Origin: Chrysomallon squamiferum
Taxonomy: Eukaryota > Animalia > Mollusca
Length of the DNA: 64,000 bases
NCBI GenBank assembly: GCA_012295275.1
Contig: CM022678.1
Coordinates: 12,586,001-12,650,000 of the forward strand
Reading direction: 5' to 3'
The position numbers and the translations under genes were made by a program. Of this stretch, positions 15,378 through 64,000 are shown in pieces (the first letter of the stretch is position 1; each line of letters opens with the position of its first letter). The notes under the pieces were generated by a model. It saw only the letters and a program-made list of their open reading frames with translations, was not told where the DNA came from and did no database searches.

Positions 15378-15444
<67 letters not shown>

Positions 15445-30378: not shown

Positions 30379-30425
<47 letters not shown>

Positions 30426-33400
30426 GTTTCTTTTTTTAACTGTTCTGTGGTACTAAATGCTTTACTATGTTTTATATATATATATATATATATTTTAAAA
30501 ATTACATTTTACTTTAAAATACAGTTTATTCATTAAAAACATGAAAAAACACACATTTCAAAAAACAAAAATGTATATCAACTCCAAATGAAAATACCAA
30601 TTTACTTAGAACAAACATAGGAACATTTTCATTTGGTATTACATAAAGTAGAAAACAAAAAAACAACTTTTACATAACATTATTATACTACTTTACTTAA
30701 TATGAACATAGTAAATTTTTAATAATGCAGTCCTTATATGAATACCATATATTTGATAAAAATATTTGTACAGAAATAGCACAATACCCAGCACAATAAC
30801 AATATCTGAATAGAAACATTTTATAGTATCTAGATACACACCAGATACACAGCAATGTAGTTATACTGGATTTAATTCTTACATTGGATTTAATTCTTCA
30901 TCACAATGAATTAGTTCACAAATTTTACTTTGAAAATGTGGTCTGGCTCATGTATCAGTGAATTATGCTTTTGAATTGAAAAATTAAAACTGTTCACAGT
31001 ATTTAACACAATTAAATACATGTCACAACATTATATCAAAAATAAGCGCAACTGAAGCAGTTCAAATTATATCGGAAATCAATGCTATTTCAGCATGAAT
31101 TAGAAAATAATAAACAAAATTTAGATTTCTTCACAACAATTATTCTGTTTATTATGGACACAAGTTTATGCAAAAATGCTATTTCTGCACAACTTTGAAA
31201 TTATTCGCACTAGTTGATCTTCCATTTAAAGTGACAGTCTGTGTATATAATGTACTAAATTGGAAAGTCGAGAGTTTCATATAAAAAATTATTTATATAT
31301 ATACTATCTTTAGCACTGTGCTCCAATAAATACAAAACAATTTCCTTTGTGTTACATTAAAATCTGCAACTCTTAGCTTTGTCAAGAGGGGTTTCACCTA
31401 GACCATTTTTAATATTTACATCAAAACCTTTTTCAATCAGTGCTGCCACAATTTCTACATTTCCATGTTCAGCTGCTAGATGTAAAACAGAATTATTATC
31501 ATTGTCTGTTAAATTAGGATCAGCTCCTTGTTCCAGTAAATACCAAAATATTTTGTAATGGTGACACTTAACAGCTGTAAAAAGAGGAGTTTCACCTTGC
31601 CTGTTCTTAATGTTTACATCAACACCTTTTTCAATCAATGCTGTCACAATTTCTACATTTCCCTGTTTAGCTGCTAGATGTAAAACAGAATTGTCATCAT
31701 TGTCTGTTAAATAAGGATCAGCTCCATGTTCCAGTAAATAAAAAACTGTTTTGTTATTACCAGAGTACAAAGCTGGATGTTTGTGAAAATGGTATTTGTA
31801 GCAATTCTGAGCTATCAGGAGAGGAGTCTCACCTAGACCATTTTTAATGTTTACATCAACACCTTGTTCAATCAGTGCTGCCACAATTTCTACATTTCCT
31901 TCTTCAGCTGCTAGGTGTAAAACAGAATTATTATCATTGTCAGTTAAATTGGGATCAGCTCCTTGTTCCAGTAAATACCAAAATATTTTGTAATGGTGAC
32001 ACTTAACAGCTGTAAAAAGAGGAGTTTCACCTTGCCTGTTCTTAATGTTTACATCAAAACCTTTTTCAATCAATGCTGTCACAATTTCTACATTTCCCTG
32101 TTTAGCTGCTAGACGTAAAACAGAATTGTCATCATTGTCTGTTAAATTAGGATCAGCTCCATGTTCCAGTAAATAAAAAACTGTTTTGTTATTACCAGAG
32201 TACAAAGCTGGATGTTTGTGAAAATGGTATTTGTAGCAATTCTGAGCTATCAGGAGAGGAGTCTCACCTAGACCATTTTTAATGTTTACATCAACACCTT
32301 GTTCAATCAGTGCTGCCACAATTTCTACATTTCCTTCTTCAGCTGCTAGGTGTAAAACAGAATTATTATCATTGTCAGTTAAATTGGGATCAGCTCCTTG
32401 TTCCAGTAAATACCAAAATATTTTGTAATGGTGACACTTAACAGCTGTAAAAAGAGGAGTTTCACCTTGCCTGTTCTTAATGTTTACATCAAAACCTTTT
32501 TCAATCAATGCTGTCACAATTTCTACATTTCCCTGTTTAGCTGCTAGGCGTAAAACAGAATTGTCATCATTGTCTGTTAAATTAGGATCAGCTCCATGTT
32601 CCAGTAAATAAAAAACTGTTTTGTTATTACCAGAGTACAAAGCTGGATGTTTGTGAAAATGGTATTTGTAGCAATTCTGAGCTATCAGGAGAGGAGTCTC
32701 ACCTAGACCATTTTTAATGTTTACATCAACACCTTGTTCAATCAGTGATGTCACAATTTCTACATTTCCTTCTTCAGCTGCTAGGTGTAAAACAGAATTA
32801 TTATCATTGTCAGTTAAATTGGGATCAGCTCCTTGTTCCAGTAAATACCAAAATATTTTGTAATGGTGACACTTAACAGCTGTAAAAAGAGGAGTTTCAC
32901 CTTGCCTGTTCTTAACGTTTACATGGACACCTTTAGAAATCAGTGCTCTCACAATTTCTACATTTCCCTGTTTAGCTGCTAGATGTAAAACAGAATTGTT
33001 ATAATGGTCTGTTAAATTAGGATAGGCTCCTTGTTTTAGTAAATATAAAGCTATTTCTGATCTGTTATACTGCAAAGATACACGAAGAGGAGTTTTCCCT
33101 TCAATGTTAATTGCATTTACTTCACACCCCTTTTTTGTTACTTCTTCCACCACACTTATGTCAATTTTAGATGCTATGTGCAATGCTGAATTTTGTTGTT
33201 TATCCATTATAGTGGTATCAGCACCATTTTCCAGTAACAACAAAGCTACTTCTTTTCTGTGTGTCACTGCTTTTAAAGCTTGATGAAGTGGAGTTTCTCT
33301 CTCACTGTTCACTGCATTAACATCAGCATTTCTCTCTATCAGTGATTTTAATATATCCAAGTCACCACGCAGAACTGATATGTGGAGAGATGTGTCTGAA

Positions 33401-36400
33401 GGCAACAATTTCAAACTAATTTTGTCATCAGACAACTGTTTGAATCGAATTTCATCTTTGAACCACTGAATCAATTTCTGATTAACAGCTACATTCACAT
33501 TAGGATCAGCTCCTTTATCAAGAAGACACTGAACAACATCAGCACTGTTAAACATCACTGCCACTTTCAGTACCTGGCTTTTTTTCCAGTTGTTCTCATC
33601 TTTATCATTACACCTCTGATCAATGAGAAAATTCACTGTATCAGCAACTCCCCATATTGCTGCTGCTAAAAGTACTTTATCTCTGTTCTCATCATTTAAA
33701 CAATCAGGTTTCAGTTTTACTATTTCTGTTATAAAACTTGAAGTACTCTGACAAGCAGCAATGATAGCAATGTCTTTAATTTTGTTTATTACATCAATGG
33801 TAACCAGTTTCTTAAAAAGATGGCTTACATCAACAACTTCAGAAGTCTCCAGATACATGTCACCTGTCCTGTAATATGATTTAAGTATTGCTTGTCTGTT
33901 TAACATAACCGTAATGGGCATTTCCTTGGAATTTATTTTAAGTCTTACATGTCCATGGAACCTGACCAATAATAGCGTAACAGCTTTTTCCTTGATTTTA
34001 CTGTTGTGTTTCTCATTTTGTATCTTGTCAGCTAACAGACATGCAATCTTCATGTTACCTGAACAAATAGAAGCAAGTAAGAGATGTGAATATTCATTCA
34101 AGTTCATCACTTTTTCAATTTCATCTCTGTGTAACAGTTCTTCGAGTATGGTATCACTGTCTGTTTTTGAACAAGCAGCTGCACTCAATGTATCAAATGT
34201 TGGAATAACACCTGATTTCAGCAACATTCTCACAACATCTTCATCACCAAACAAACAAGACATATCCAAAAGTTCTTTTAGATTTGTTAATTTCATTTTA
34301 AGCATATTTTCTGTGAAAAATCTTGACAATGTTCTTATTCCATTCACAATACATTCACTTTGAAAAGATGATGAAATTGTAAATCTTTCTTCAATTTCCA
34401 AATACCAAATGAAACTAGGATTCTCTGAATCACTGTCAAGAAGATGTGAAATATTGCTAAATATTTTATTAACAGTGTCTACATTTACAGATGATATATA
34501 AAAATATTCAGTTTGATGTTTATGTAGGTTTTGATGCAGTATTTCAGACAATTTATCATAAAAATATTTTTGCTCTACGAGATACTTCACAAACTGTTCA
34601 TCTTTCAGTGATGGATGTGAAACAATTTCTTTGGCCTCACTTGATGTCATCAAGTCAGTAAATCTGCGAGCAAGAACATCAAAGCAGTCAGGTCTAACAG
34701 TCATTGTAATGTGACTTGTGTTAGACACTCCAGGCGTCACAACATATTCTAACAACATGGAGACAGGACACACTTCCAGGAACTCTGCTGCTTTCTTTGG
34801 AACCTCTGATGAAAACATCAGAAACAAAGAGTCAAACACTGACTGGTGAATAAATGTGTATTTGTTGTCACAACACTTCAAATAGGTACCACACATTACA
34901 TCAGCTGTTTTCTTTATATCTCTGAGATCAATGTCTTTTACACTCTGACAGACTCGCTCTAGCAGTCTTATTAATTTCATTATGTCACTGTCAGTGTCAT
35001 TTTCAAATGGATCCAATGAATCGATGCTGAGACTGCCTTGCTGAAACATGATCAGCAGCAGAACCAGGTAATTGATCTGTAAAGTTTCATTTTTCAAATT
35101 TTCCAGCTCTTGTCGGAGATATTCTACAGGTTTCTCAAAAAACTTAACTCCTCTTTTTTGTGCATCACTTGAATGAACATAATACACACACATCTGAGGA
35201 AATCCTAATGCTGTACATGAACAGCAAATGACAGTCTCTTTATCAATTTCATTCAGTGAAACATTCTTTTGTAGGAGATAGTTGTTTAGAATTGTTTTCT
35301 TTTCATCGTAATTCAGACAACATTCATCACTCTGCAGGTCAAGGAGATGATTCTCATTAAACAGATCAAATTCCTTCAGATTGCCTATAACTTCTGTAAA
35401 TATTTGTTTTCTTAAAGAAATAATACACATCATATGCCGATTCTGAACAAGACTCCACATCTTTGGAAACAGCCATTTCCAAGATGACACAAAATCTAAT
35501 ACAAGATTTGTCTTACCAAATATATCATCAATGAGAACAATACATGTTTTATATGGAGATAGAGGGATGTCATTGAAATCAGAGTGATGATGAACGGTGT
35601 AGAATTCTTTTTTTTCTTCTTTCTCCATCTGTTTAATCATGTTCAAAGCTAGAGTTGTCTTTCCTGAACCTGGACTTCCTACTACAATAACGACACCATT
35701 CTTTTTCAAAAGTGCTACACCTCTTTCTTCTGCTCTTGTTTTAACATAGACTCTCCAGTCAACTGAGTTTAACAATGCCCTGGCAGACTCTGTATCACAA
35801 CCAAAAAAATTAACACCTATTATTAACATATTTTAAATATATTTTACCATTTAAATATATATAATATAGTTTTTAACTAGTCATCAGATGTGAATTGTTT
35901 AAAATAAAAGAGCATAATTTTTGTCATAATTTTCTTTCATCAGAATTTAATGACGATGCTAAGATGTCACAATTTTAGATGGTGTAAAAGTAGCATGATG
36001 ATTATCTTCTTATAAATTAACATCTTTCAGAAGTGAAAAAAAAATTAAAAAAATAAAATAATACCTTTGATACTGGATTCTTGTCCATCAATCTTTGCTG
36101 AAATAATATAAAATTAAAGTTTATAATTTAGATTTCAGTAAAAAAGAGAATGATTAAAGTGATCTTATAGTTACTCTGTACTTTATTCATGGAACAGTCA
36201 ATATATAACATTATTATTATTATATCTTTATCTATTTTACTGCAATTATTAAAACTACTATTGTTACTTAGTTTTTGTTCATGTTGTTATTATTATTATG
36301 TTCTTTGTATTATAGTCTTTGTACTGTATTTCAGTAGTTGCAAGTGATAATAACAACAGATACATTGGCTTGTTTAATTTATTCGGAATTATCTTAATAA

Positions 36401-36900
36401 AATCTAGATAAGAATCATGATTCTTATAATTTGTGTGTGTGTGTGTTTGGGTGGGACGTCATAAGCGCATAAGACAAATGTGTGCCAACAAAACCATGCT
36501 AGATTATTGTTATTATTGTTATTATTATTTTAATTATTATTTAAGAAACAGTATGCAAATCATAAACTTCAAACAGTTACAAATTATAAGCACTGCTAGG
36601 TAGTCCATGACTTCAATTTCTTCAAACTGTCCAGCATGTGTTAGAAGGGCTGCTTTGGCTCTCACAAACTTGGAAATTTTTTAAATTACTGATTGGCCAG
36701 CATTAACATGTGTTATGACATTTTCCATATGGGACTGGTCTAACGTGACTGCTTTGGGTTAAATTGTTTAACAACTTACAAACATTATTTCTCAGATCCA
36801 TATATAAAGCATCCACTGCACAGTATGAATCAAATCTGTCATTTGTTAAATTCTTTATATTAAATCTCTGCATTGTCTATATTTGTTTGTATGAATGTCT
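28540..36900. repeat. Tandem segmental duplication, copy A (partner ~56700-63500)
   Basis: Colinear blocks: 28540-29640/56700-57630, 31100-31290/58705-58890, the CDSs, and intron 35790-36900/62380-63500. Confidence 0.93.
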
Positions 36901-38353
36901 AAAAACAAAGGTGAGAATAAATGTAATTGCAGAGAATAGCAGATCACATCTGGCTAGTGGGCTTTGTATTCTGGGCAACATTAATGGGTATCAAGAATTT
37001 TAGTTAGTGTGTAATTTAATGAAAAATAAGTAGTTTTGTCATGGTAGAAGTTAGCTATGTAGTTACTAAGAAGTGTGAAATGTTATATGTTATATTACTA
37101 TTAGTAACATTGATAATTCTACTAAGTATTTCTTCTACAGGCTGTTTTTAATCTGTCATTCCCGTTTAGCATTTGGACACATATTTTCACATTTATGACC
37201 CTCCTGCAATCAGCACAAGAACACGTTGTTTAATTCTCTAATATAAAATTCCTGAATGTTTCAATAAGTTATTGGTTGGGTATTCTATTGCAGGCTACTT
37301 ATTAATATTTAGAGGATTTTTAACAAACTTTTTCTTGTGATGACATTGTGAGATCAATACAGTGGTACCTTGATGTACGAGTTTAATTTGTTCCATGACC
37401 GAGCTCGTAATTCAATTTTGCTCAAATGTCAAATCTATTTTCCCAACTGAAATTAACTGAAATACCATTAGTCCATTCCAGCCCTTAAAAAAACCACCCC
37501 TATTTTTTTTTGGTAATGTGTTTTTAAATAAGAAAAAAAAAAATTGTATTTATAAATAACAAATAATATGAAATAAAATGTAAAGAAATAAATTGGTTTT
37601 GTAAAGTATATTTATCTTGGCGATCAGACAAATTATTTTAACGCCTTTGTCTGGAGTTACAGCCTTTATTGACTCCTTCTCATACTTCCTAGACAGGACA
37701 ATTACATGCACACCTTGCTCATGTCTTTCTATGAATTCAAGCATTAATTCAATGGACGTCAACTGCTGCTTCTTCTCAGCACCGTCTGAAGCTCGCTCTT
37801 AACTTGGATTTTGGCTCTTAACTCAAAGCAAAAAATCAACCAGGCAACTGTTCTTAACTCGAAAATCTCATAAGCTGGAATACTCATAAGTTGATGTATT
37901 GCTGTATTAAAAACTGCTACAACTTAGTCAATATAACATGGATATATCTTGGAAAGGATATTGCACGTGAATATGGACTTGTCTCCTTAGCCAGATTGGG
38001 TCACATGTGTGCAGCCTGTCAGTGTATGACAGGAAAATACTAATGAATGCTTTTATGTGTATTCTGTTATCTTATAAACAAGTAGAGAAAAAGAAAATGT
38101 TTTTAACTTACTGATTTCACAGTTATCTCCTATCTGAAAATTATTACAATCAGTAATATTTGTATTACTGATTGAACCTAGTTGTAGTATAACAGGACCT
38201 GTGAAACACAATTTTTTAAATTTACCTCTCATAAGCAGAAGAATATTAAAAAGTTTGTGTCTGCAGTATTAATACAATCTGTTATTTGTTAAAAGTATTA
38301 TATATGACAATATATATTTAAAATGTGTTTAACTGATTATGTGTGTATATATG

Positions 38354-38442
<89 letters not shown>

Positions 38443-39671
38443 CTTTACAGTATTAAAATGTATAACAGTAAATACAAGAATAATTATATGATGAAGTATC
38501 CAAACAGTAACTAGTGTGTATTTTGCTTTACTGTTTTCATCTGTGAAACAAAAAGGCTATAAAGACTTTAAACTGTTAATTCATTATCAATATAAATTTA
38601 AACAGTGTCAATTCACTAATGCCTAAGTTGGAACTAAACAATATATTGAAACAGTGTATTGTTCCAAATGTAAATGGTATAATTGTCAGTTTAGAATTTA
38701 CCATTAATAAAGTAAACAGCATATTGATATAGTCTACTAGTACAAATATAAAAATAATGTTGACTCTTTATAATTTCCTATCAAAAAAGTAAACAGTATA
38801 TTGAAATACTGTGTGTATTACCACGACTGCTCAACTCAGGTAGTTGTAAATGATGTTGTACTGTATGTGCGATGTCAAAGGAAGACTGAGATGTGATGCC
38901 AGATGGACAAACACTTGTCTTATTGTCTAAGAGAGAAACAGCTGTGATGGTGTCTGTGGATGAAACAGCTGTGGTGTTAGAAGAAATTTCTGAACTCTCG
39001 TTTTTGTTATGCATCCTGGCTGAGCTGTAAAAAATAATAGAGTAATTTTTTATATAGAAGGAAGAAACAAAATGTTTTATTTACTTATTTTATTTACTGT
39101 TATATGGGATCATACATAAGATTTAGAAATAGTTAGATAACAAAAGAAACCCACTGCTGTCACTTCACAGTCTACTCTTTCTTATTCAGTGATGTTTCAT
39201 TTACACCTACCCACAGACAGTACATACTATTTCATAAACACTGCTAAAACTAAAACAGCTCAAGATTCCATCAGGAGGCATTGATCCAAATATCTACTAC
39301 ACCTTGCACACATTACTAGAGACCTATATCTAGTAACTTGTATTAATACTAGCACTGCCTTATAGACTGTATTATCAACTTTTGTTCAATAAATATATGC
39401 CTTGAACATTTTTTCAAAAAAGTAATCAAATAAAAAAGATTTAACAGATGTCCTAATTTTTAAATTGAGGTGTTAGATAATGTTATTTAGAAATACTCAT
39501 GAAAGTATGTGTCACACTACTGTTAATGGAAAATCTTAGTTGTAATAATTACCTCGTTTTGGATCTGTTCTTTTTCATCTTTTTAGGGGGTGGTGATGGG
39601 TTGACTGGGGCAGATTCTGATTCTGGGTTGCTGAGTTTCTCAGCTATTCTGCTGCTTTGCTGAATAGACAT
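31357..39671 (-). CDS. NLR-like STAND NTPase (nSTAND3-type) with ankyrin repeats, N-terminal NLS and RHIM-like motif; ~1624 aa; copy A
   Basis: Exons 39553-39671 (ATG), 38822-39024, optional 38532-38540, 38112-38198, 36065-36097 and 31357-35789 are all GT-AG and in frame (4875 nt without the 9-nt exon). Motifs: Walker A GSPGSGKT, Walker B IVLIDDIFGK, sensor IISLRKQIF, GFP motif, then ~20 ankyrin repeats. The ORF-track start at 35829 lies in an intron. Confidence 0.88.
31388..32998 (-). repeat. 435-bp (145-aa, four-ankyrin) coding tandem repeat, ~3.6 near-identical copies
   Basis: Anchor ctgttcttaa(t/c)gtttacat has its cttaa at 31606, 32041, 32476 and 32911, an exact period of 435. Confidence 0.95.
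37360..37904 (-). mobile_element. Non-autonomous pogo/Tigger element in a copy A intron
   Basis: TA-flanked, with imperfect TIRs CAGTGGTACCTTGATGTACGAG and CTCATAAGTTGATGTATTGCTG. Minus-strand remnant ASDGAEKKQQLTSIELMLEFIERHEQGVHV resembles the Tigger N-terminal HTH. Confidence 0.8.
38112..38198 (-). CDS. 87-nt phase 1-1 exon encoding a RHIM-like motif
   Basis: tgtgtttcacag|GT CCT GTT ATA CTA CAA CTA GGT...TTT CAG ATA GGA GAT AAC TGT GAA ATC A|gtaagt translates PVILQLGSISNTNITDCNNFQIGDNCEI with no stops, in frame with the neighbouring exons. Confidence 0.75.
39057..39330 (-). mobile_element. Degenerate SINE
   Basis: gaaggaag..aaatgttttattt..tttatttactgttatatgg..gaaacccactgctgtcac..ctactcttt..cccacagacag..ttgatcc resembles the reverse strand of an abundant gastropod tRNA-derived SINE (from recollection; needs a repeat-library check). 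Confidence 0.6.
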
Positions 39672-40802
39672 CGTCAACCTGAAACACACACAAACGTACT
39701 AGTGATATTCCAACTGAATCTAAACATTAATATACATGGCAAAAATCAACAGGACAGTTGTCAGAAATCACTGTAAATGACTAAAAAAATAATAATGAAA
39801 ACATTAGGTAACTAAAGTAAAATGAAATTTTATTTAATATTAACTGTTTTTAGTATCAGAGACAAAAATGAATTTTGCTTATTCAAGTCAGTATACGATA
39901 TTTTATGTAAAGGTTGAATACTGCTAAAGAAATGATTATAAGTAACAAATATAACAAGAATGGAAAGTTATTTTTAATAAAACCTGCACCCAGCTTTTGA
40001 CTAGCTTTGACAATTCATTCATATAATTTTTGATCATCAAAGTGTACAAGTCATCATCTTAGCAAAAGTCCTGTTTTTTGTATGTTATTTCCAATAAAAT
40101 ATCAATGTCTAAGCCATCAAAACATGCAAGTTATCATCTGACACTTGGTCCCAAGTAATACAAACCAGTTAACTTCTGGCTTTAAGTCATCAGTAGGTAA
40201 ATCCTCTGCAGCTACTGTTATGTACATACACATGACTATCTCCTGCGGTTACAAAGATATATACAAATCGGTACAACAGGTATTTGGTTGTTTTTTAGCC
40301 CATTTTGGCTAATTAGCAGAAAGGGCTACTTTGGCCAACTGTAGATTGAAAAATAATTGACACAAAAGGCTGAAAATCAACAAGATTGCTAAATAAGCTT
40401 AATTTTTTCAGACCTGTATGTTTGTATGTTTGTTCACAATAACATGCTGAACATGCCAAAATCTTCAAAATGACACAGCAGAATTATTAAAAGTGCAAAC
40501 ACACTGTGGTTTCAGTTTGTGTCTTATTTAACAAATTCAACCTGTCTTGTGAAGAATTTATCAAGATTTTTCAAATGAATACCTGAATCTAACATTTTTA
40601 CTACAAAGCAGTTTAGTTTTTTTCTGCCAAGCCCCTAAAAAAAATTACCTTTTCAATTTATATACAACAGCACAACTTTATTTACATAAGAAGCTTGAAT
40701 TTTCAATCTATTAAATAATTAAATAACAAGTTAAGATGGCTGTGATGTGTATACATTATATATATATATATAGATTTATGGATATATAGATATAAATGTT
40801 AC

Positions 40803-40940
40803 TTACGTATTGCAAAGGATTATGGTTAAAAATAAAATGCTTGTAGACCTTTTAAGTAACATTTATATATATATCTATATATATTACTTAAAAGGTTTAC
40901 AAGCATTTTATGTTGAACCATAATCCTTTGCAATACATAA
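40803..40940. repeat. 57-bp inverted repeat around an (AT)n loop
   Basis: Arms 40803-40859 and 40884-40940 are reverse complements with 4 mismatches. Confidence 0.92.
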
Positions 40941-42177
40941 ACTCAGCTAACCCTTGGAATCAACTCCAGAAAGGTGATTCAGATATTAATTATGGACAAT
41001 AAAATGTATGTAATCATGAGACTAGAGATGTTGTAAGTCTGTCATTTGAAGCAAACAAAAAATAATTTTCTTAGCTTTGTACTTGCTGTGATTTGACAGC
41101 AAATAAGTTACCTATCATCTGACCATTGTTGAAATTTTCTCTGACAGAGCTTATCAACAAGCAAAAATAATGTTTTAAAACTGATCGATTTATGATTTTA
41201 TATTTTTTAAAAAGGGATTAGATTTGCATTCTGCATTCTATCAATACCTCTGAATACATTGTTCTGTTATGTTGTACAGTTTGTTATGTTTATGATTCTT
41301 AATTCCCCGTTTATCACAAGAATTTTGAAGGCAAAATAATTGACAGTTTTAAACAGAAGATAGTAATCAGCAAATCAGAATGTGATTTCGCTATGCACAT
41401 ACTATAATGTATATGCTAAAAGTAGGAACACTGAAGAAAAATATACAGCCAACAAGTTATAAAAAATATAAACATAAATCTAATCATTTTAAACAGTGCC
41501 AGACCTTTCTAGCAATTCATAAAATCTATGGCAATTTCATTCTGTAGACAACGTAACGTAATGGTGATTTCTATAAGCACGTGCTACTTTCAAATGCAGA
41601 GCTTCTTTTCGCCAAAGAAGACACACCATAGTGTTGCACATTGTTTGAAAGATAATTGAATGCTCTTTCATTTGGTCCCGTGAACATAGGTTTTATTTTC
41701 AACCAGTTTTTTTCAAAATTGGTTTGAAGGCACGAAAAAGTACATTTTTGGACACAACTTTTGATACAAGCCATTGCCAGCGATGACATGCACACGGTTA
41801 GAAAGATTGAACTTTGACCTCCTATCTGTGCTAAAAATAATATTGAAGCCATTTTGACAAAAACAAGCTAGGTGTTTGTAGAGCGACCCTATTTTAGTAC
41901 TTTTTACTCCACGCTGTTAATTGCTGACCATGGGCACTGAAGTACGTTTACCCCCACCATGTTTAACACTCGTACAAAGAACTGATTAAACATACAACAA
42001 GACCACCACCACCATTTAAAAGAGCACATAATGATCTTTAGTTACATAGATTTGTATTTTTAGGGTAGGATTTATAGAAGGGATTTGGGAGAGGAGGAAA
42101 ACGAACAAAATCTGAACTTTTAACAGCTTCGACCAATTATATCAGCTAGGCTGCCAGTACCTACATAGAGAAGGGTG

Positions 42178-42540
42178 AGTATCCTGATTCAAGAAAAGGC
42201 AGTATGAAATGCATCAAGCATGTGATGTTTTAAGATGTCAACTCTGTGCCAATTAAATGGTTTCAACAAATGGCCGCTAGACCTGAAATTCGTACCAATG
42301 GTGAAATGCTACTTCAAAAAGCATGAGGCTTTGTCACAAGGATGGCGAGAAAGTGAATGAGAGTTGGATTGATCATTTTAAGGAAAGGCGGGGTATTGGA
42401 AAAGTGCTTAAAGTGGTTGAATCTGGCCATGTTAATGCAGGAGTAGTTGAAGAATGGAAAACTGAAGGACATTCTCCAGAGATATGAAGTGCAGGACATA
42501 TATAACACTGATGAAAGCTGATTATTTTGGCTGCTTCAGA
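42178..42540 (+). mobile_element. Decayed pogo/Tigger transposase (CENP-B HTH and start of DDE domain)
   Basis: KWFQQMAARPEIRTNGEMLLQKA*...SWIDHFKERRGI...LQRYEVQDIYNTDES*LFW, compared with the consensus GWL..FK.R.GI and YN.DETGLF; contains stops and frameshifts. Confidence 0.85.
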
Positions 42541-44639
42541 GAACATGCTAGGATAATTCGTCATTTTGCCAACTTACATTTACAAGTAGTCACTATGACT
42601 GTTTATGTGTAAGTTATCACTATGAAGACTTAGCATTACTCATCATGTCAATAAGTCATCAGAAATATCTTGGTACTGAAAGTGACAACTTACTGAGGTT
42701 TACTATATTTTTACTGAGTTACATTTATCACACTTGAATTTCAAATGTGTATGTGTGTTTCTGCTTCTGTTTGTGTGTAAATGTAACTAATTTAAACAAA
42801 CGGAACATTTCTTACAATTCAGTGAACCCATCTTTAGACATTAGCTGCTATATGTTAAACCAGATGTCTGTCACTGACCATACAACTCTTCTTTCCTGTC
42901 AACAGAACAATACAAAATTTATATTACTGATTTACCTTGCATCTTAAAATAATATTGTCAAGTAATACCTTCTTTTATTATTTAACCACAATCTTAATAA
43001 AAAAATAAAATAAAAGAAGAATAATTAAGCACAAAGAGGAAAAAATAATAAAATTAAAAATTAATGTTATAACTGCCGTTTTTCAAAGTATCAGAAATTA
43101 TTAACGCACTTATTGATGCTTAAAAGAGAATTTTATTGATTATCAATATACATGAATCTGGTTAGTTTACAAAATAAAATTTTATGAATCAAATACAATA
43201 CAGTAAAAAGTCATGAATTTTTAACAAAAACCAATCAGCAATATTTATTAGTGTAATTGTTTCAGTCACATGACAGTTTTATATGAACACACGGTATTGA
43301 GATAGCATGGCTACCTCGGTTTTGACATGAAAAAAAATAGATGATTTTACAAGAATGACATCCGAAAGTGGATGAATAACCATTTCAAATCTGAACATGG
43401 TGAAAACAAAAATATTTAATAAAATATTGAGTGAATATCTGCTGTCATCCGAGGACAAATTTAAAATTAACAACAGAAATAGAGATGAATTCACATTTAT
43501 AAATAATTTAATGAATTACTCATTATCTCCATTTGCTGTTGTTTATACTAACACTGACTGCAGAATCATCTATGTACACTGATGCATTACTCTCAAAACA
43601 TTTACTTACTCACTTTAACCCTCCATTAGATTCTTGCTGTTGTATGTTAAACCAGTTGTCCAAAACTGATCATATAACACTTCAGGCCTGCCAACAGAAT
43701 AACACAAAACAGATGTTTTCAAATTTGTTTGATTTACGTGTCAATATTCATTTAGAAAATAGAATAAAAGAAAAACAAAATATAATACAATTAAGAACAT
43801 TTTGTTTTGTTCAACCACAACAAAATCCAAACTCTCAAAAACTGAGTTATAATTAGAAGAGACAGGATGAAATCTTGGAAGTTTTTTCTTATCAAAATTG
43901 TTGTGACATCTTATTTCCCTGATGAAATAATTTCATCTTTTCTTACACAGAATTTCAGTTAATAAACAGAAAATTTGTCACAAACAGTTATTACAGATTT
44001 TATTTTGCCAAAAAATCCAGATACCTAAATAGCAAGAAAATTAAACGAACTAGAGGCCAAATAAATCAAATTAACTGTAGAAATACAATTCACTTGTGAG
44101 TACTGTTTTGGTACAGAGTCATCTAGTTTATGTACCTGTATACTGTTTTGTTATTCTGTAAGATTTGAGCGGGCAATTGAGGTTTGTAGTGTGTGGTAAT
44201 TGATTATCTCATTAAACTTGTTTTATCACCCAACCCATTATAACACCAATATTAGCTGAAAACCAATGTCAGCATTACAAAGAATTTTGAAAGTACATAT
44301 AGGCAAGATGTGATGACTTAGATAAATATTTTTGGGCACTTCATGAAAAATGTGTTTACTCTGACAAATTATGTATTTGCATACAGTGTTCAGTTATGTC
44401 TTTGAACGGTTAACTGCTGGTTTAGGTACTGAAAGACCATTTTGAAAACAGTTCATTTTAAAAAAAAACCCAATAAATTGCAGTTATTTAAAATAATATA
44501 TATATAAACTTGCTTTGATTTAGAGTGCGAACAAAAATGTATCTTTGCAGATATCTAAATCAACACAGAATACAATGTGTTTGTGTTTGATTTGTAAACA
44601 AACAGCCTAGATATTAGAATCGCTAGACAATGGATCATT

Positions 44640-45904
44640 ATCTAGGTATGTGCATTACTGCCGGAACTGCGTCCGCCATTTTCTGCTATATCCGTGTGAC
44701 CTGGATCTCCCCAATGGCGAGTGGTGTCTCTGCATAAATTGCTTCTCATTAGTCAGGGGCTGGGAGTTTCAGTGATCCCTGATGGTATAATTAGTGGGAA
44801 ATTCCCGTATCCTCACTTGTTTTTTGAATTTTTCAGTTCGGTCAATTGGTTCGTTTCGGAGGAGAGTTCAAAAAAAAAGATTGTATTCAACACATTAAAA
44901 TCGGTCGTTTTCGATATCGGAGGATAATCTAAGGTAGATTGAGGCGAAGAACAATATTTAATTTTATTATATGTGAATTTATATTGAAATATGATATAGC
45001 TGAGAAAAGTTATTAACCCCAGAAAGACAAGCTGTAAAATCGAAATGGCTTCAAAATCAAACATGGCGGATGAAAATTCGAGTGAAACTGAAGCGATTTC
45101 TACCCTTGATTTCAGCTATGTTTGATAAATGAGTGATAGAACAGATTGTGATGCTGTATAAATATATGACTGTACTCTATGTCACACTTTTATTACCCGA
45201 TGGATTGTAAATAGTGGACGATTGTGGATTTTGCGAGTGCCTTCAAGCCAATCGGTATGAACTAATTTTGAAATTTAGTATTCATTATTATTATGTTGGC
45301 CTTCTTTTCGGGATGCCTAACTTGAAGTGGAAAAGAAAATCCCCCAATCCAAGGACTGGTATAGCCAAGCAACACTTGGAAGAGAACTTTTCCAATGGAA
45401 TTCCAGTTTCTTTGGCGAATTTCTTAAATGGTCACGTATTCAATATTGTTTATTTTTGTCTTTCGCTGCGAAAAAAGCCGTTCGAAGACCTTTAGAGAAC
45501 TTCAATCATATATCCCTAATAATATTACTGGTCATCAGAGAAATACAGTTTTGAATTATATTACATCACAAATTCAGAAACTTGTTGACAACACTCTGAA
45601 CAAGTTCAAGAAACTCAGTGACGCTGTGGAATTCAGTATGTTTGATTCCATTTGTCACGAAAGTTTTGATCAGCTGAACCTGACCAGTACTATTTCCACA
45701 GTTATGTCATGTGTTATCCAGCCAGTGGAAGTCCCTCAGGCTGATGAAGAAAATGCCACTGTTCTTCCCAGTACCAAGCCTGTTGCTGTGTGCCCTCTGA
45801 AAACCAGGCAGATAAGAAAATGCCATAACTGTGAGAGATATCATAAAAGTTTGCAATTTGCCAAACAAAGTGAGAAACAGGATCTCTTAAAATGTCAGAA
45901 TTAA
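44640..45904 (+). other. Comparatively CpG-rich insertion with a frameshifted ORF, probably transposon-derived
   Basis: Overlapping ORFs 45214-45495 and 45428-45904 end in CxxC (KCHNCERYH) and lack introns; family not recognised. Confidence 0.3.
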
Positions 45905-49798: not shown

Positions 49799-49858
<60 letters not shown>

Positions 49859-51351
49859 CAGAAAATGTATATTTGTTAAATTAACATGTATTCTTCACAA
49901 ATTAGGTAGAAGAGATTTAGGAAAATAATTATTTTATTAACTGCTTTTAACTGAAAATGTAACACAATAAAAATTTCATGTAATTAATATAATTAAATGT
50001 ACATCAGTTGTTTAATGGAAGTGTGTGGTCAAAAACATAATAATAATAAAATAAAATATAATTTATTTTTTCTCTTTGTTGTTATTCAACATACAAATTT
50101 AATTATAAGATTGTAATTAAAAAGTTTTGTCTTTGTTATTTTATATTTAAACTTGGTTATATTTACAAATTATGCTATCTCTATGAGAGTCTTACCTGTT
50201 AAGCTGATTTTTAGCAGGGGGCTTGCCTCCTTATCTTTTATTACTTTTTTGTTTGTTGTTGTTACTCCATATCACTATGAATATCAGTTTTTCCATTCTA
50301 ACCAGTGCTCCATGGTTAATGTATTAGAGTTCAGTGTTTTGTCTGGTATCTGTCCATCCATCACACACAGGTCACGGCTGAGTGAACTGGTAATTATGTC
50401 TTTTACCCAGAATGCATTGATCTTCCCAGCTGTGTATAAAAATCCATTGAGAAGAATTTATGAATTATCTCTTGAAGAAATGAACATATTCTGTTTCTCA
50501 TAACCCTTTTTATGGTTGAGAAGTGAAGGTATATCTTTTATGTACTTATGTGTTGACTTCACTAAGCTAAACTGTTAATAATCAGACAGACATTGTTTTC
50601 TCTAAAATACTTACTTAATTTTAAACAAAGCAAATAACAGAGGTTTAACTGTTGGTGATACTAGAATCTTAATTAATTTCCAGTCATTAATCCAAAAAGA
50701 AATACTAGTCAAACAAATATTTTGTGAATCTCATATACTGAAGCATCTGCTGTGCATAACAATTGTAGATAAAACTTGTTGTGACAATTTATCACAAAAA
50801 AAAATCTTTTATAAAGTAAATTAGTAACACTAAAATGTCTAAGTATATAAAACATGTAAATACATGTACATTAATTAATATTAGCACATATGTACCAAGA
50901 TTAAAACTATACATCTCAAATATATAACTGCAGACCATAAACTGGTACCAAATATACAAAAATTAGCATTCTTATTTGCATATACTAGAAGATATTTTCC
51001 TGAATTATTTTTTATAATTGTTGGTAATCATCATTGGTAATCAGTGATTATTTCACTAATATTACATGGACTTACTTAATCAGTCTCGTCACAGACTGTG
51101 TAACAACAGGGGTATAACAGATGTGAGACAAGTGTTTGAATTTCAGATATACACATCAGTATTTCCAGTGGTCAATGACCGAGGTTTGAAAGGTCAATGT
51201 ACAGTTCACAGTGTGAGTTATTACCAGTGTCAATGTTGTGGGGAAAGTTACCTATTTTACCTTTACTGCATACAAAATCAGTGGGTTAGGTTTATATATC
51301 TCACAAACACCAACAACTCTGATATGATTAAATATTAATTTCTCTAGGCAT

Positions 51352-51396
<45 letters not shown>

Positions 51397-52288: not shown

Positions 52289-52414
52289 GAGTAGGAAGTC
52301 AGTTTCTGGCATTAGCTACTGGCATTTTGTTGATGGCTCTAAGTGGCATGTTTAATGTTCACCAGCATGGAGCCATCAATTCAGCTGCTATCATTTTGTA
52401 TGCCTTCACAGCAT
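52289..52414 (+). pseudogene. TM9SF1: Orphan intact exon of transmembrane 9 superfamily member 1
   Basis: tttcag|GA GTA GGA AGT CAG...ACA GCA T|gtgagt translates [42 protein letters not shown], against TM9SF1 [41 protein letters not shown]. No other TM9SF1 exons were recognised. Confidence 0.85.
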
Positions 52415-53795: not shown

Positions 53796-53848
<53 letters not shown>

Positions 53849-54984: not shown

Positions 54985-55031
<47 letters not shown>

Positions 55032-56038: not shown

Positions 56039-56113
56039 CCAGCAATTGCTGATGATAAAAAGAAACGGAAGACAATAACTTCAGAAACAAAATACGATAT
56101 TTTAAATGAACAC
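56039..56113 (+). mobile_element. pogo/Tigger N-terminal HTH remnant
   Basis: PAIADDKKKRKTITSETKYDILNEH matches the KKRK.IT.E.K..I pattern. Confidence 0.55.
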
Positions 56114-57058
56114 AAAACCCAAAATGAACCCCACAAAGAGCGGCATATAATTATTTTTTAATCTATTTGTATAAATTGATTTGTAAATGATTTATTGTTT
56201 GTTTAATATCTGTGATCTATTAAATCATTTATGTCTACATTGCCGTTTTATTTCTCCTTATTTAACATTTCCTTTTATATCAAATTTCAATTGCGAAGAA
56301 CGTAACTACTGTTTTAACCTTAATTCTATACCTCACGAATTCAACCCAAGGGTAAGACACCGTTTATTTTGATCAGTCTCATCTCAGATTACCAGCTATT
56401 CTTAAACTAATGGTTATAATACTTAAAACTCTATCTATCTATCTACACACACACACACAGTTAAACGATATTTTTTAGAAAGCCACATCAAACTACCATT
56501 CAGTTACTTAAATTACCTAGGAAAGACCACAGTGTTTTAACACTGCTGTCTCAGAGTGGTGCTGAGACTGGAACTTCAGCAGACACACAAACACCAGCGC
56601 ATCTCCCCAAACAACACCTCAACGTACATACAATTATATAATTCTTAAGGAAATCTATCATCTATTATATATTGGTGAGACTGTTGGTCTCCGTCTCACA
56701 TAGCTTATATAATTGTTACATATTTAAGAGGAGACTGTTGTCTCTGTCACAAACACAATGTCACTAGTGGATGTCAGAGGAGGTCACAAGAACTCGTACA
56801 ATGCATTATTCCATTGCACTGTGTTTTTCTTGAATACAGGAAATATAGCATCTAATAAAGAAAACAAAAGTAATTACAATTTATAAAGCATGTTTATTAT
56901 GTTAATTTTTGATGGCATTACAATACACTCCATATTAATAATAACAACCATTATAATAAAATAAAATACTACAAAAATCTAAAAGAAATTAGTGAAACAG
57001 TAAATTCATTTCAACAATATTCATATTTAGTACTTACTCATTTACTATATTGGTCACA

Positions 57059-57099
<41 letters not shown>

Positions 57100-58091
57100 T
57101 AATAACAGTTATTATATTTCTCATTTAGATTCAAAATAATACACACACAAATGTGCTGAACTGGTAATCAGATGCCATCTATCTCGTGTACAATAATGGA
57201 TTCACCTTCCCAGTTGTTGCACAATCAGCTTAGGAATTAATTAAGCAATTGATCCCTATTACGATTTACCAGAAGTCAAAACAAAAAACAGCAAAGTTTA
57301 ATTAAAGTGGTTTAATTACTGGAAACTTAGTTAATTTCCTGCGTTGCTAATCCCACAAAAACAGCAGCTTAAGACAACCGCACTATCACGTGACTTGCAC
57401 AGCCAATCAGACCAAGTATTTTGTTAATCTGATTTCATGTTTCTGAAAGTGGAAACAAAAGCATCTTGTGACAATCTTAGAGAAAACTTGTTATGGCACT
57501 TTATCATAACACATCTTGTAGAAAGCCAGTCAGCAACTACGAAAAGTCAAATTAAACATATACAAAGAATATAAAATATGTGTGTATATATATACATCTA
57601 TATATATATATATATATATATTAGAACATACATATCAAAAATTTAATGTAATTAAAAATGCATGTAAGTGTTTGCTATTTAAATTCATTCAGTATATTCT
57701 ACTGATTAAATAGAAGTAAAAATAAATAAATATATCCCCAATTAATAATAATAATATTGATAAATATATAAATAAACATTTTTTTTAAAAATGAATTTTT
57801 TCTTTCTTATTCAGTATATGAAGACAAAATAAATGTATGAAAAATATTAATTGCTTATAATAGCCAAGTATTACAAAGTATTACAAACAATATATTTAAA
57901 AATATATATATATCAGTGTATTCAAAAAATACACATAAACTAACACATTTCATACCTGGTTTATGTAATAGTGGCATAACCAGCAAAGGTTAGCACATTA
58001 CACAATATTTTCTGTTTTCCATAATTGAAAAACAAATGACTAAATTAAAAGTAAATCATTATAAAGCTCTTTTCATTCATCGAAAGTCAAC

Positions 58092-58151
<60 letters not shown>

Positions 58152-58896
58152 TAAAAAATATTCCAACTTACATTTACTTTACTAATGATTCACTATTTTG
58201 TAATTATTAATGTTATATGTAAAAAATATCATGTCAATGAAGATTTACATTTGCTTTATAAATTGTTACTGTCTATTTTCTAATGCTAATTTAATCAAAT
58301 GTAAACATTATATGAATGTATCTTCTAATTAATAGAGAGAAAAATGCAGATGCTTTCTTTTGTAAGCAATAACAGTAAAAAATATATATATATCAAAAAT
58401 TATATTTTAATTTAAAATACAAATTTATTTATTAAAACCACAAAAAAAAAAAAATGAAAATACCAGTTTACTTAAAATAAACATAGTAACATTTTCATTT
58501 AGTTTTACAGAACTATACTACTTTACTTAATATAAACATAGTAAAATATTCAGAAATGCAGATTAATTTTGTCAAACAAAAAATATACATTAAAAATTTT
58601 GCACCCAACTTTAAAACACAACTTTAATTACTATATCCTACTTAACAGATACTTTCACACATGTATTTCAGGATGAAGTAGAAAATTAAGATCCACTTTG
58701 TACCATAGAAATAAAAAACAAAATTTAGGTTTCTTCACAACAATTATTCTGTTTATTATGAACAGCAGTTTTATACAAAAATGTTATTTCTGCACAACTT
58801 TAAAATGTTCTCACTAGCTGATCTTCCATTTAAAGTGATAGTCTATGTGTATAATGTAATAAATTGAAAAGTTGAGAGTTTCATATCAAAATGTAT

Positions 58897-61800
58897 TTAT
58901 GTTTTACTATCCTTATAAGAAATAAGAAAATTTTCTTTTTGTGACAAAGAAGTATTTCTATTAGCTGTGTCAACAGGAGTTTGACCCCTGGAATTAATAA
59001 CAAATATATCAGCACCTTTATCAATCAATGCGCTCACAATTTTCTCACAATCATATTCAACTGCTATGTGTAGAATAGAATTGTTATCATCGTCTGTTAC
59101 ATTAGGATTAGCTCCATGATCCAGTAAAAACAAAACTAATGTCATAATATAAGGGTACACACTTTCATAAGTGGAACCAGAATGTTTTACGTTATTCATG
59201 GCTAAAAGAAGAGCAGTTTCACCTTGAGAGTTCTTGGCATTTACATCAACATGCTTTTCAATCAGTTCTTTTACAATATCTAGATATAAACATTTAGCTG
59301 CTAAGTGTAAAACAGAATTGTTAACTTTGTCTGTTGACTTGGGATCAGCTCCTTCTTTTAGTAAATATAAAGCTACTTTGTTCTTATTAGAGTTCACAGC
59401 TGTAATAAGAGGAGATTCACCGTTACCGTTTTTAATGTTTACTTCAAAACCACCTTCAATTAGTGCTGTCACAATTTCCATATTTCCATGTTTGGCTGCT
59501 ATGTGTAAAGCAGTATTGTTATATTTGTCTGTTAAATTATGATCAACTCCACATTCCAGTAAATACAAAACTACTTTGTTATGTCTACAGTTAACAGCTG
59601 TCAAAAAAGGTGTTTCACCTTTGCAGTTTTTGATATTTACATGAACACATTTTTCAATCAATGTTGTCATTATTTCCATATTTCCATGTTCAGCTGCTAG
59701 ATGTAAAGCAGAATTTTTATCATTGTCTGTTAAATTAGGATCAGCTCCATGTTCTAGTAAATGAAAAGCTGTTTTGTTATTATAAGAGTACACAGCTGGA
59801 AGTTTGTAAAAATCATATTTGTTGTTATTAAGAACTGTAAGAAGAGGTGTTTCACCTTTACTGTTTTTAGTATTTATATCAAAACCTTTTTCAATCAGTG
59901 TTGTTACAATTTCTGTTTTTCCACATTTAGCTGCTAAGTGTAAAACAGAAATGTCTGTTAAATCAGGATCATCTCCTTGTTTTAGTAAACTAGCATCTCT
60001 CTTTATCAGTAATTTTAACTTATCTACATTATTATGCAGATCTGATACCTGGAGAGATGTGTCTGAAGGCAGCAATTCAAACAGATGGAATCTAGTTTTG
60101 TCTTCATACAACTGAATCAACTTCTTGCTAACTGCTACATTCACATTAGGATCAGCTCCTTTATCAAGAAGACACTGAACAACATCAGCACTGTTAAACA
60201 TCACTGCCACTTTCAGTACCTGGCTTTTTTTCCAGTTGTTCTCATCTTTATCATTACACCTCTGATCAATGAGAAAATTCACTGTATCAGCAACTCCCCA
60301 TATTGCTGCTGCTAAAAGTACTTTATCTCTGTTCTCATCATTTAAACAATCAGGTTTCAGTTTTACTATTTCTGTTATAAAACTTGAAGTACTCTGACAA
60401 GCAGCAATGATAGCAATGTCTTTAATTTTGTTTATTATATCAATGGTAACCAGTTTCTTAAAAAGATGGCTTCCATCAACAACTTCAGAAGTTTCAAAAT
60501 ATGTGTGACTTGCCTTATAACTTGGGTTAAGTTTTACTTGTCTATGATACCTAACCAATAACAGCTTAATGGCTTTTTCCTTGATTTTACTGTTGTGTTT
60601 CTTATTTTGTATCATGTCAGCTAACAGACATGCAATCGTCATGTTACCTGAACAAATAGAAGCAAGTAAGAGATGTGAATATTCATTCAAGTTCATCACT
60701 TTTTCAATTTCAATTCTGTGTAATAGTTCTTCGAGTATGGTATCACTGTCTGTTTTTGAACAAGCAGCTGCACTCAATGAATCAAATGTTGGAATAATAC
60801 CTGATTTTAGCAACATTCTCACAACATCTTCATCACCAAACAAACAAGACATATCCAAAAGTTCTTTTAGATTTGTTAATTTCATTTTAAGCATATTTTC
60901 TGTGAAAAATCTTGACAATGTTCTTATTCCATTCACAATACATTCACTTTGAAAAGATGATGAAATTGTAAATCTTTCTTCAATTTCCAAATACCAAATG
61001 AAACTAGGATTCGCTGAATAACTGTCAAGAAGATGTGAAATATTTCTAAATATTTTATTAACAGTGTCTACATTTACAGATGATATATAAAAATATTCCA
61101 TTTGATGTTTATGTAGTTTTTGATGCAGTATTTCAGACAATTTATCATTAAAGTATTTTTGCTCTATGAGATACTTCACAAACTCTTCATCTTTCAGTGA
61201 TGGATGTGAAATAATTTCTTTGGCCTCACTTGATGTCATCAAGTCAGTAAATCTGCGAGCAAGAACATCAAAGCTGTTAGGTCTAACAGTCATTGTAATG
61301 TGACTTTTGTTAGACACTCCAGGCGTCACAACATATTCTAACAACATGGAGACAGGACACACTTCCAGGAACTCTGCTGCTTTCTTTGGAAACTCTGATG
61401 AAAACATCATAAACAAAGAGTCAAACACTGACTGGTAAATAAATGTGTATTTGTTGTCAGAAAACTTCAAATAGGTGCCACACATTGCATCAGCTGTTTT
61501 CTTGATATGTGTGAGATCAGTGTTTTTTACACTCTGACAGACTTGCTCTAGCAGTCTTATTAATTTCATTATGTCACTGTCAGTGTCATTTTCAGATGAA
61601 TTCAGTGAATCAATGCTGAGACTGCCTTGTCGGAAAAAGATCAGCAGAAGAACCAGGTAATTGATTTGAGAAGATTTATCATTTTTCAAATATTCCAGTT
61701 GTTGTTTGAGACATTCTACAGGTTTCTCAAAAAACGTAACTCCTTTTTTTTGCATCACTTGAATTAACATAATACACACACACCTGAGGAAATCCTAACT

Positions 61801-64000
61801 CTGTACATGAACAGCAAATGACAGTCTCTGTATTGATTTCATTCAGTGAAACATTCTTTTGTATGAGATATTTGTTTAGAATTCTTTTCTTTTCATCGTA
61901 ATCCAGACAACATTCATCACTCTGCAGGTCTAGGAGATGATTCTCATTAAACAGATCAAATTCCTTCAGACTGTCTCTAACTTCTGTAAATATTTGTTTT
62001 CTTAAAGAAATAATACACATCATATGCCGATTCTGAACAAGACTCCACATCTTTGGAAACAGCCATTTCCAAGATGACACAAAATCTAATATAAGATTAG
62101 TCTTACCAAATATATCATCAATGAGAATAATACATGTTTTATATGGAGATAGAGGGATGTCATTGAAATCAGAGTGATGATTCACGATGTAAGATTCTGT
62201 TGTTTCTTCTTTCTCAATCTGTTTAATCATGTTCAAAGCTAGAGTTGTCTTTCCTGAACCTGGACTTCCTACTACAATAACAACACCATTCTTTTTCAAA
62301 AGTGCTACACCTCTTTCTTCTGCTCTTGTTTTAACATAGACTCTCCAGTCAAGTGAGTTTAACAATGCCCTGGCAGACTCTGTATCACAACCAAAAAAAT
62401 TAACACCTATTATTAAAGAATTTTAAATATATTTTACCATTTAAATATATATAATATAGTTTTTAACTAGTCATCAGATGTGAATTGTTTAAAATAAAAG
62501 AGCATAATTTTTGTTCATCAGAATTTAATGACAATGCTAAGATGTCACAATTTTAGATGGTGTAAAAGTGACATGATGATTATCTTCTTATAAATTAACA
62601 TCTTTCAGAAGTAAAAAAATAAAATAAAATAAAATAATACCTTTGATACTGGATGCTCGTCCATCAATCTCTGCTGAAATCATATAAAAATAAAACAAGT
62701 TTATAATTTAGATTTCAGTAAGAGAGAATGATTAAAGTGATCTTATAGTTACTCTGTACTTTATTCATGGAACAGTCAATATATAACATTATTATTATTA
62801 TTATAGCTATCTATTTTACTACAATTATTAAAACTACTATTGTTATAGTTTTTGTTCATGTTGTTATTATTATTATGTTCTTTGTACTGTATTTCAGTAG
62901 TTGCAAGTGATAATAACAACACATACATTGGCTTGTTTAATTTATTCAGATTATCTTAATAAAATCTAGTTAAGAGTTGTGATTCTTATAATTTGTGTGT
63001 GTGTGTTTGGGTGGGACGTCATAAGCGCACAAGACAAATGCGTGCCAACAAAACCATGCTAGCAATAACAATTGTTATTATTGTTATTATTATTTTAATT
63101 ATTATTTAAGAAACAGTATGCAAATCATAAACTTCAAACAGTTACAAATTATAAGCATTGCTAGGTAGTCCATGACTTCAATTTCTTCAAACTGTCCAGC
63201 AAGTGTTAGGAGGGCTGCTTTGGCTCTCACAAACATGGACATTTTTTAAATTACTGCTTGGCCAGCATTAACATGTTATGACATTTTTCATATGGGACTG
63301 GTCTGATGTGACTGCTTTGGGTTAAATTGTTTAATTTAACAACTTACAAACATTATTTCCCATATATAAAGCATCCACTGCACACAGTATGAATCAAATC
63401 TGTCATTTGTTAGCATTACTGAATAAACCAATATATATTTTAAAGTGTAAAATTCTTTACATTAAATCTCTGCATTTATGTATTGTCTATATTTGTTTGC
63501 GTGAATGTTGTTCAGGACAGTGTGTTTGACAGAAAAGTAGGCCTACTAATGAGTACTGTGATGTGTATTCTGTTATCTATTAAATGGGCAGGCAAAAGAA
63601 AATTCTCAGATTTCAACTTACTAATTAAATTTTTATTTTTTTCCTGTATCTGCTGTCACTCAGGCCAATGTTGTTGAGGTCATAAATGTCATTAATTTTA
63701 ACCATGTGCAAACAATCGTTCAGCATACCACAAAATTAGCAAGAATGAAAAATGAGTTACACAAGGATGGTTTTGCACAACCCTTTTGTGAACTAAACAA
63801 TTTCTGCAGACTTGATAGTGTGTAGACATGTACAGATGTAGATGTATGCATTACATTTGTGTTTGCTTGTGTTGGTCATACTGTTTGATGGTAAAATACT
63901 ACCAATTAATGTGACATATAGTTCTGTTATCTATCAAGTATGTTTCAGTTTTTAACTTACTGATTTCCTCAGCTTCACATCCTGATACAGTATTTCTGTT
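58897..64000 (-). CDS. NLR-like nSTAND3-type NTPase-ankyrin paralogue, copy B; 5'-partial, one frameshift
   Basis: Last exon 58897-62379 joins ORFs 61727-62365 and 58897-61779 across a frameshift in the T8 run at 61744-61751. It also has a 33-nt exon at 62641-62673 (EIDGRASSIK) and an exon from 63961 running past the window end (NRNTVSGCEAEEI). Same Walker A/B as copy A; ~11 ankyrin repeats. Confidence 0.85.

Follow-up and report, generated by a model that had tools for sequence, protein, structure and literature searches.

We analysed a window of 64,000 nucleotides from the mollusc Chrysomallon squamiferum (contig CM022678.1, positions 12,586,001 to 12,650,000), a stretch of AT-rich animal DNA with a GC content of 21-35% per 2 kb. 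Two paralogs were identified on the minus strand, separated by 26.6-28.2 kb, each with an nSTAND3 NTPase, a helical region and an array of ankyrin repeats. On balance, copy 1 appears to be an intact nSTAND3-ankyrin gene, likely for an intracellular immune receptor with a predicted amyloid motif, and copy 2 a recent frameshifted duplicate; we hold this reading with only a little more confidence than doubt. The putative NLR-like immune role, taken by itself, is quite probable. The predicted motif resembles the RHIM and sits 27 residues N-terminal of the NTPase in copy 1, a position taken in relatives by caspase, CARD, DED, Death or HEPN domains. The features of the two copies are as follows.

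39553..39678, minus strand: copy 1 exon A, start ATG at 39671, predicted from splice sites and frame
38822..39024, minus strand: copy 1 exon B, predicted, Ser/Thr-rich and likely disordered
38532..38540, minus strand: copy 1 micro-exon C, predicted, 9 nt, phase 1-1
38112..38198, minus strand: copy 1 exon D, predicted, 87 nt (29 residues), phase 1-1, RHIM-like motif with relaxed tetrads LQLG and FQIG
36900..38010, strand not assigned: insertion in intron D-E of copy 1 with a high-copy element, not in copy 2
36065..36097, minus strand: copy 1 exon E, 33 nt, phase 1-1
31357..35789, minus strand: copy 1 exon F, one open 4.4-kb exon with nSTAND3 NTPase (Walker A GSPGSGKTT, Walker B, sensor-1 Arg, GxP-like GFP, winged-helix His at 34848), helical region, ankyrin array and stop
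31366..33056, minus strand: copy 1 array of high internal conservation, 435-bp unit (145 aa, four ankyrins)
28344..31356, strand not assigned: co-duplicated non-coding block 3' of the gene, with a patchy match to 56633-58896 at 70-89%
within 63540..64000, minus strand: copy 2, two donor and intron-start segments homologous to the exon D donor (63960, 63621)
62641..62673, minus strand: copy 2 exon E homolog, 33 nt
58897..62382, minus strand: copy 2 exon F homolog with nSTAND3, helical region and about 11 ankyrins, split over two frames
61738..61755, minus strand: copy 2 frame broken near exon residue 211 by a net loss of 2 nt at an 8-A run
61435..61437, minus strand: copy 2 His-to-Tyr change at a near-invariant winged-helix His

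Exons A-E of copy 1 have canonical splice sites and, joined to exon F, give one open frame of 1627 aa (predicted); the last four exon junctions are all phase 1. No Pfam match was found with exon B. The 5' end of copy 2 extends past position 64000, beyond the window. The NTPase, helical region and ankyrins share one exon, so the similar introns all lie upstream of it. An earlier note on this window, made from the sequence alone, had described a tandem NLR-like receptor pair; it did not mention this single exon, the copy 2 frameshift, the 435-bp expansion in copy 1 or the five small 5' exons. A third gene copy in the window was rejected, as tblastn was empty. Within the intron D-E insertion of copy 1, summed contig depth was very high at 37300-37824.

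Profile searches bore out the tandem nSTAND3 and ankyrin domains. Family PF20720 was matched with E=3.9e-25 (copy 1) and 2.4e-26 (copy 2), at 88.8 and 92.7 bits against a curated cut-off of 27.2, together with ankyrin families. Scores for NACHT (20.8 bits vs. 26.7) and NB-ARC (17.2 vs. 23.5) lay below their cut-offs and the sensor is ankyrin rather than leucine-rich repeat, so by these profiles the copies classify as NLR-like only, not as strict NLRs (NACHT or NB-ARC plus leucine-rich repeats). Among 102 aligned sequences, 92-98 retain residues K43, D87, R126, P197 and H314 (Walker A Lys, Walker B Asp, sensor-1 Arg, GFP Pro and winged-helix His), a conservation of the deeper family that is real. 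An alignment-based AlphaFold model of 762 residues (69 sequences; predicted local distance difference test, pLDDT, 87; predicted template modelling score 0.84) replaced a single-sequence model with a pLDDT of 38. Over residues 1-400 it matched STAND cores: MalT (Z 15.7, root-mean-square deviation (rmsd) 5.2, 318 aligned), NLRC4 (Z 15.2, rmsd 4.6, 292 aligned), the NB-ARC of NRC1 (Z 15.0, rmsd 4.1, 272 aligned) and Apaf-1 (Z 14.3, rmsd 5.0, 338 aligned), as well as NRC2, NOD2 and SAMD9; ankyrin stacks were matched beyond. The predicted model thus has the NBD-HD1-WHD fold (nucleotide-binding, helical and winged-helix domains) at Z 14-16 and rmsd 4-5 over 270-340 residues, and the NLR-like STAND architecture proposed earlier held up against both profiles and folds, although a shared fold does not prove function. 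The predicted copy 1 model also has the tripartite effector-STAND-repeat architecture, with effector swaps among relatives.

The ankyrin arrays differ in number, sequence and loop insertions, as the earlier note had seen. After the core, copy 1 has 20 ankyrin starts (19 full repeats and a terminal half) and copy 2 has 10 and a terminal half; 46-aa long repeats with 13-residue inserts number three and two, respectively. No copy 2 repeat lies within 16% nucleotide distance of any copy 1 repeat. Synonymous divergence between the arrays is 24% (seven non-overlapping cross-copy repeat pairs, picked from 26 in-register repeats) vs. 3.6% (35/980) in the introns (p=6e-16). Selection acting on the protein cannot account for extra divergence at synonymous sites. 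The arrays therefore predate their flanking sequence, most likely through exchange or by having been rebuilt from other repeats. In copy 1, a unit of 435 bp is repeated 3.8 times at 97% identity; units 2 and 3 are identical but for 2 of their 435 bases, units 1 and 4 have differences of their own, and the expansion is fresh. Over 66 aa, self-identity reaches 100% at period 145 in copy 1 vs. 64% in copy 2, and 14 of 119 homologs have arrays at least 85% self-identical over this length. Copy 1 therefore shows the near-identical tandem units of high-internal-conservation NLRs, and the diversification by repeats that had been likened to fungal STAND receptors is seen here as turnover of the same kind. 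Amino-acid changes between the copies are concentrated on the presumed binding face, six columns which we take from designed ankyrin libraries (proportion of non-synonymous differences, pN, 0.38 vs. 0.17, permutation p=0.008). Across the array, pN was 0.21 and the synonymous proportion pS 0.24 (p=0.38); of the proposed elevated ratio of non-synonymous to synonymous change (dN/dS) on this face, the concentration stood but positive selection was not demonstrated.

Over the shared core (769 and 751 residues), protein identity is 89%. The helical region is 95-98% identical except for two short hypervariable indel loops at 33850-33980 and 33340-33470, which are candidate additional specificity sites. 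Introns differ at 9/258 and 26/722 aligned bases, and the coding core (748 codons) at 85 non-synonymous and 29 synonymous positions, with dS 0.063 and dN/dS 0.80. Given this low divergence in both introns and core, the likeness of the two cores reflects recent duplication, not purifying selection. Conservation of the core by selection between the copies was rejected on dN/dS of 0.8-0.9; of the conserved core and introns described in the earlier note, the high similarity is upheld, the selective conservation between copies is not. Homology between the copies extends across the gene and some 3 kb past its 3' end, stopping at 28344/56633, and comparison of 40.5-56.6 kb with 1-28.4 kb gave a sole match, one microsatellite. 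These boundaries and the non-matching spacer indicate tandem duplication, unlike colinear haplotypes, and haplotype concatenation, which had been named as grounds for discarding the pair, is accordingly disfavoured and was rejected. The downstream non-coding block (29147-29760) has a third copy at 50600-51010, with about 70% identity and no gene remnant next to it.

Copy 2 carries two apparent lesions. The winged-helix His is His in 97 of 102 aligned sequences and Tyr in none; from its position, we infer H314 to be the counterpart of the MHD histidine of NLRs. Loss of the MHD histidine in NLRs causes auto-activation. With the 2-nt frameshift and the His-to-Tyr change together, copy 2 is probably a decaying pseudogene. 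Taken alone, the frameshift may be a sequencing error at the A run, though we think this rather less likely than a true lesion. The broken copy 2 agrees with the birth-and-death evolution proposed earlier; as for the receptor "pair," there are two copies, but probably one gene and one pseudogene.

The motif in exon D follows RIPK3 position by position: I452, Q459, V460 (as I), G461, D462, N463 and L466 (as I) match, while Phe at V458 and Thr at V450 do not (RIPK3 RHIM positions and tetrad consensus from bioRxiv 10.64898/2026.02.19.706818 and PMC12575786). The RIPK3-type aliphatic spacing V450/I452/V458/V460 plus Gly has I, F, I and G in register, with 10% charged residues in a disordered, low-charge context. 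The exon also contains the sole hydrophobic-Q-hydrophobic-G-x-N in six frames of the window (0.13 expected), a pattern fitted after sight of the motif and not counted as evidence.

A search of 1.84 billion representatives yielded 991 clusters at E<=0.001, in line with the large multi-copy family that had been predicted; the best 150 of these clusters were retrieved. All 19 named homologs among the 20 looked up are molluscan. The closest proteins are six from Gigantopelta aegis, with 38-41% identity over 520 aa, followed by Haliotis, and copy 1 groups with eight G. aegis proteins at FastTree support 1.0 (58 sequences). In homologs with at least 40 N-terminal residues, which left out about half of the proteins and one isoform, the spacing phi-x5-phi-x-phi-G was found at most 100 aa from the NTPase in 8 of 74, compared with 0.76 expected and a maximum of 4 in 500 shuffles. 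Control windows gave 0-1 matches of 68-74, and shifted spacers of 3, 4, 6 and 7 residues gave 1, 3, 0 and 0, so that spacer 5 was the strongest. A profile built from the matches found 7 of 66 further proteins at p<=0.05. Seven close proteins, counting copy 1 and P0045, have an N-terminus longer than 50 residues; the spacing was exact in five of them and one residue short in two. A compositional beta-arch score was marginal (30/73 vs. 21.8 expected, maximum 30). The 3380-aa protein P0014 (G. aegis XP_041355392.1) is seemingly two merged tandem paralogs, both opening with a RHIM-like motif; both tandem units start DC-x-x-VQFG. In P0004 (G. aegis XP_041374024.1), residues about 90-265 hold many 10-residue Asn/Gln/Gly-rich repeats before RHIM-type spacing, recalling amyloid pseudo-repeats. 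Among 43 homologs chosen for long N-termini, Pfam domains included HEPN (11), Death (2), DED (2), SAM (2), caspase (1) and CARD (1), and the caspase, CARD, DED and HEPN cases with a shown position are all N-terminal to the NTPase. Expansions of TRADD-N in Crassostrea include STAND, HEPN and ankyrin fusions (PMC8195603).

Contig depth was taken from four of nine listed sequencing runs, of which X2 and X5 are RNA and X3 is DNA. In X3, summed contig depth over the exon was mostly 2,000-9,000, vs. 33-75 for the listed long single contigs, and many contigs had 90-95% identity over the exon; this suggests many paralogs and is not a copy number. In X2, X5 and X1, depth over the exon exceeded that of the flanking introns, where contigs were also present. 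The E-F splice has support from paralogous RNA contigs: the X5 joint keeps the 33-nt exon length, and X2 has a loose end. Splicing of exon D has indirect support: an X2 RNA contig stops exactly 30 bases inside the donor, which is the branch expected between spliced and unspliced sequence if 31-letter words were used, and an X3 DNA contig runs across. RNA contigs also cover much of intron D-E of copy 1 (36540-38160) at depth 4-12, as pre-mRNA, a retained intron or library DNA. In copy 2, the intron start that follows exon D is retained but the exon is not, a hint of exon swapping. That copy 2 holds a decayed exon D was rejected, since the sequence 5' of both donor segments had no homology to exon D (p=0.37 and 0.89 vs. 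shuffles).

Several observations weigh against an amyloid receptor. The tetrads of exon D, FQIG and LQLG, have F or L first and depart from the strict (V/I)Q(V/I/L/C)G; strict tetrads in homologs were not enriched (2/73 vs. 1.2 expected), and neither were relaxed RHIM tetrads. Exon D had no match in Pfam RHIM, among PDB RHIM chains or in the ESM Atlas when searched with queries of 28-32 aa, which have little power (the 32-aa query contained four intron-derived codons). The spacing pattern was derived from the literature, was run after the N-termini had been viewed and was one of three patterns; its eight matches include one inside the DED region of P0012, a pair of near-duplicates from a single scallop species and the doubtful P0143, so that some five count as independent. 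None of the contigs shown joins exons D and E, and introns too are covered by RNA contigs. No partner RHIM motif was found within the window, and a survey of Aplysia detected no RIPK orthologs (PMC9334734), although a review assigns RIPK1/3 a molluscan origin (PMC13506858). To these is added the near equality of pN and pS across the array. We are evenly divided on whether the exon D motif, as predicted from its sequence, would be a working amyloid relay.

The same observations shape the alternatives. An NLR-like family with variable ankyrins, in which the motif is a chance beta-prone linker or is left unspliced and signaling passes through an adaptor or through members with folded effectors, is unlikely, although it is the alternative that we take most seriously. 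It would account for the absent and unenriched strict tetrad, the lack of a RHIM profile match, the D-E joint that was not shown and the lack of exon D at the homologous place in copy 2; it fits poorly with a spacing enrichment that is specific to one register, with the exact spacing in five of seven closest relatives with an N-terminus above 50 aa, copy 1 among them, and with the position-by-position fit to RIPK3. Much less likely is that neutral unequal crossing-over drives the expansion and array churn, with a non-immune or no present function. Between the copies, the core has a dN/dS close to 1, and over the array pN and pS are nearly equal; these values, the broken copy 2 and a function predicted from sequence are all as this explanation would have them. 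Nearly invariant STAND motifs across 102 sequences, the 4.4 kb over which copy 1 stays open, the death-fold, caspase and HEPN fusions of relatives and the bias of changes to the presumed binding face are not.

We consider it slightly less likely still that assembly errors explain part of the pattern, be it allelic haplotypes set in tandem, a 435-bp array expanded too far or a copy 2 frameshift that is not real. Units 2 and 3 do differ at only two bases, the frameshift does fall at an 8-A run, and no reads were seen spanning the array or the frameshift site; set against this are the homology that ends at 28344/56633 with a spacer matching only at one microsatellite, the private differences of units 1 and 4, and similar arrays in 14 of 119 homologs.

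The nearest counterparts are the nSTAND3-ankyrin proteins of other molluscs (G. aegis XP_041374008.1, XP_041355986.1 and XP_041355392.1; Haliotis, scallop, mussel and oyster), which have the same NTPase, helical region and ankyrins; their annotation goes no further than uncharacterised, ankyrin-like or "Novel STAND NTPase 3 domain-containing." We found no literature on this molluscan family, its N-terminal motif or the turnover of its arrays, in a search that left most subscription journals outside, and none of the five papers there that use the term nSTAND3 concerned molluscs by title and abstract. Like copy 1 with its predicted motif, the fungal systems NWD2/HET-S and PNT1/HELLP combine a short amyloid-type motif (PP/RHIM-like in the latter) with a STAND domain and a repeat sensor, and the PP motif cross-seeds with human RHIMs (PMC12881547); the fungal receptors, however, have NACHT or NB-ARC and an adjacent effector gene, whereas here there is nSTAND3 and no partner in the window. 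Branchiostoma BF82280 (RHIM-NACHT-repeat) is also an animal STAND protein, with a RHIM instead of a death-fold (PMC4262963), but it has NACHT and a profile-verified RHIM, whereas copy 1 has nSTAND3 and its predicted motif deviates at the first tetrad position. High-internal-conservation NLRs, including the Podospora het-e/het-d NWD family, share near-identical units with copy 1; arrays of this type, with gain, loss and proposed intergenic exchange of units, are reported from across life, animals included (PMC13449251). The copy 1 unit is a four-ankyrin, 145-aa block, and its variation in number among individuals is putative. Bacterial Avs5 (Sir2-nSTAND3-TPR/PPR) belongs to the same Pfam NTPase clade and is a tripartite defence receptor (bioRxiv 10.1101/2025.07.08.663546), with an enzymatic effector and different repeats in contrast to the ankyrin array here; the fold match to 9jap had Z 12.4 with an rmsd of 22.6 over 383 aligned. 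In PADLOC, no Avs model was matched, and there were only NTPase-stretch or weak matches (best PDC-S73, E=3.5e-9 over 84 aa).

Other features of the window were few. On the minus strand at 14999-16665 there are exon-like stretches of another gene with an acidic repeat of 42-bp period (8.4 copies, 15782-16135), its frame interrupted by stops, and no Pfam match. On the plus strand, broken frames at 42150-42560 may represent a pogo/Tigger (CENP-B-like) transposase remnant; a 158-aa open frame at 45428-45904 has a C-terminal Cys/His cluster and no Pfam match, and is possibly a transposon relic; and short exon-like open frames at 20481-20723 and 21169-21495 had no Pfam match. An Rfam scan gave no matches.

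By analogy with known STAND proteins, the ankyrin array would sense a ligand, lifting autoinhibition; ADP would be exchanged for ATP and oligomerisation would follow. Oligomers would cluster motifs that template a RHIM-bearing effector, as in NWD2/HET-S and PNT1/HELLP, and assembly of the effector would lead to cell death or inflammatory signaling. Diversity would arise as arrays undergo unequal crossing-over internally and pass between paralogs, and as phase-1 exons at the N-terminus are swapped. Tentatively, and with somewhat more doubt than confidence, we propose that molluscs have a large, so far undescribed nSTAND3-ankyrin class that re-creates the fungal NLR design, in which arrays are exchanged and N-terminal modules, RHIM-like motifs among them, lie on swappable phase-1 exons, with prion-like templating to a molluscan RHIM effector. 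In at least one gastropod that has been surveyed, Aplysia, classical NLRs are very few (4 NACHT proteins; PMC9334734). Screens based on NACHT or leucine-rich repeats would miss nSTAND3-ankyrin proteins, which, with 991 clusters, could be a hidden repertoire of intracellular receptors. If the motif is functional, amyloid signaling by STAND receptors, shown experimentally in fungi and predicted in amphioxus, would extend to molluscs.

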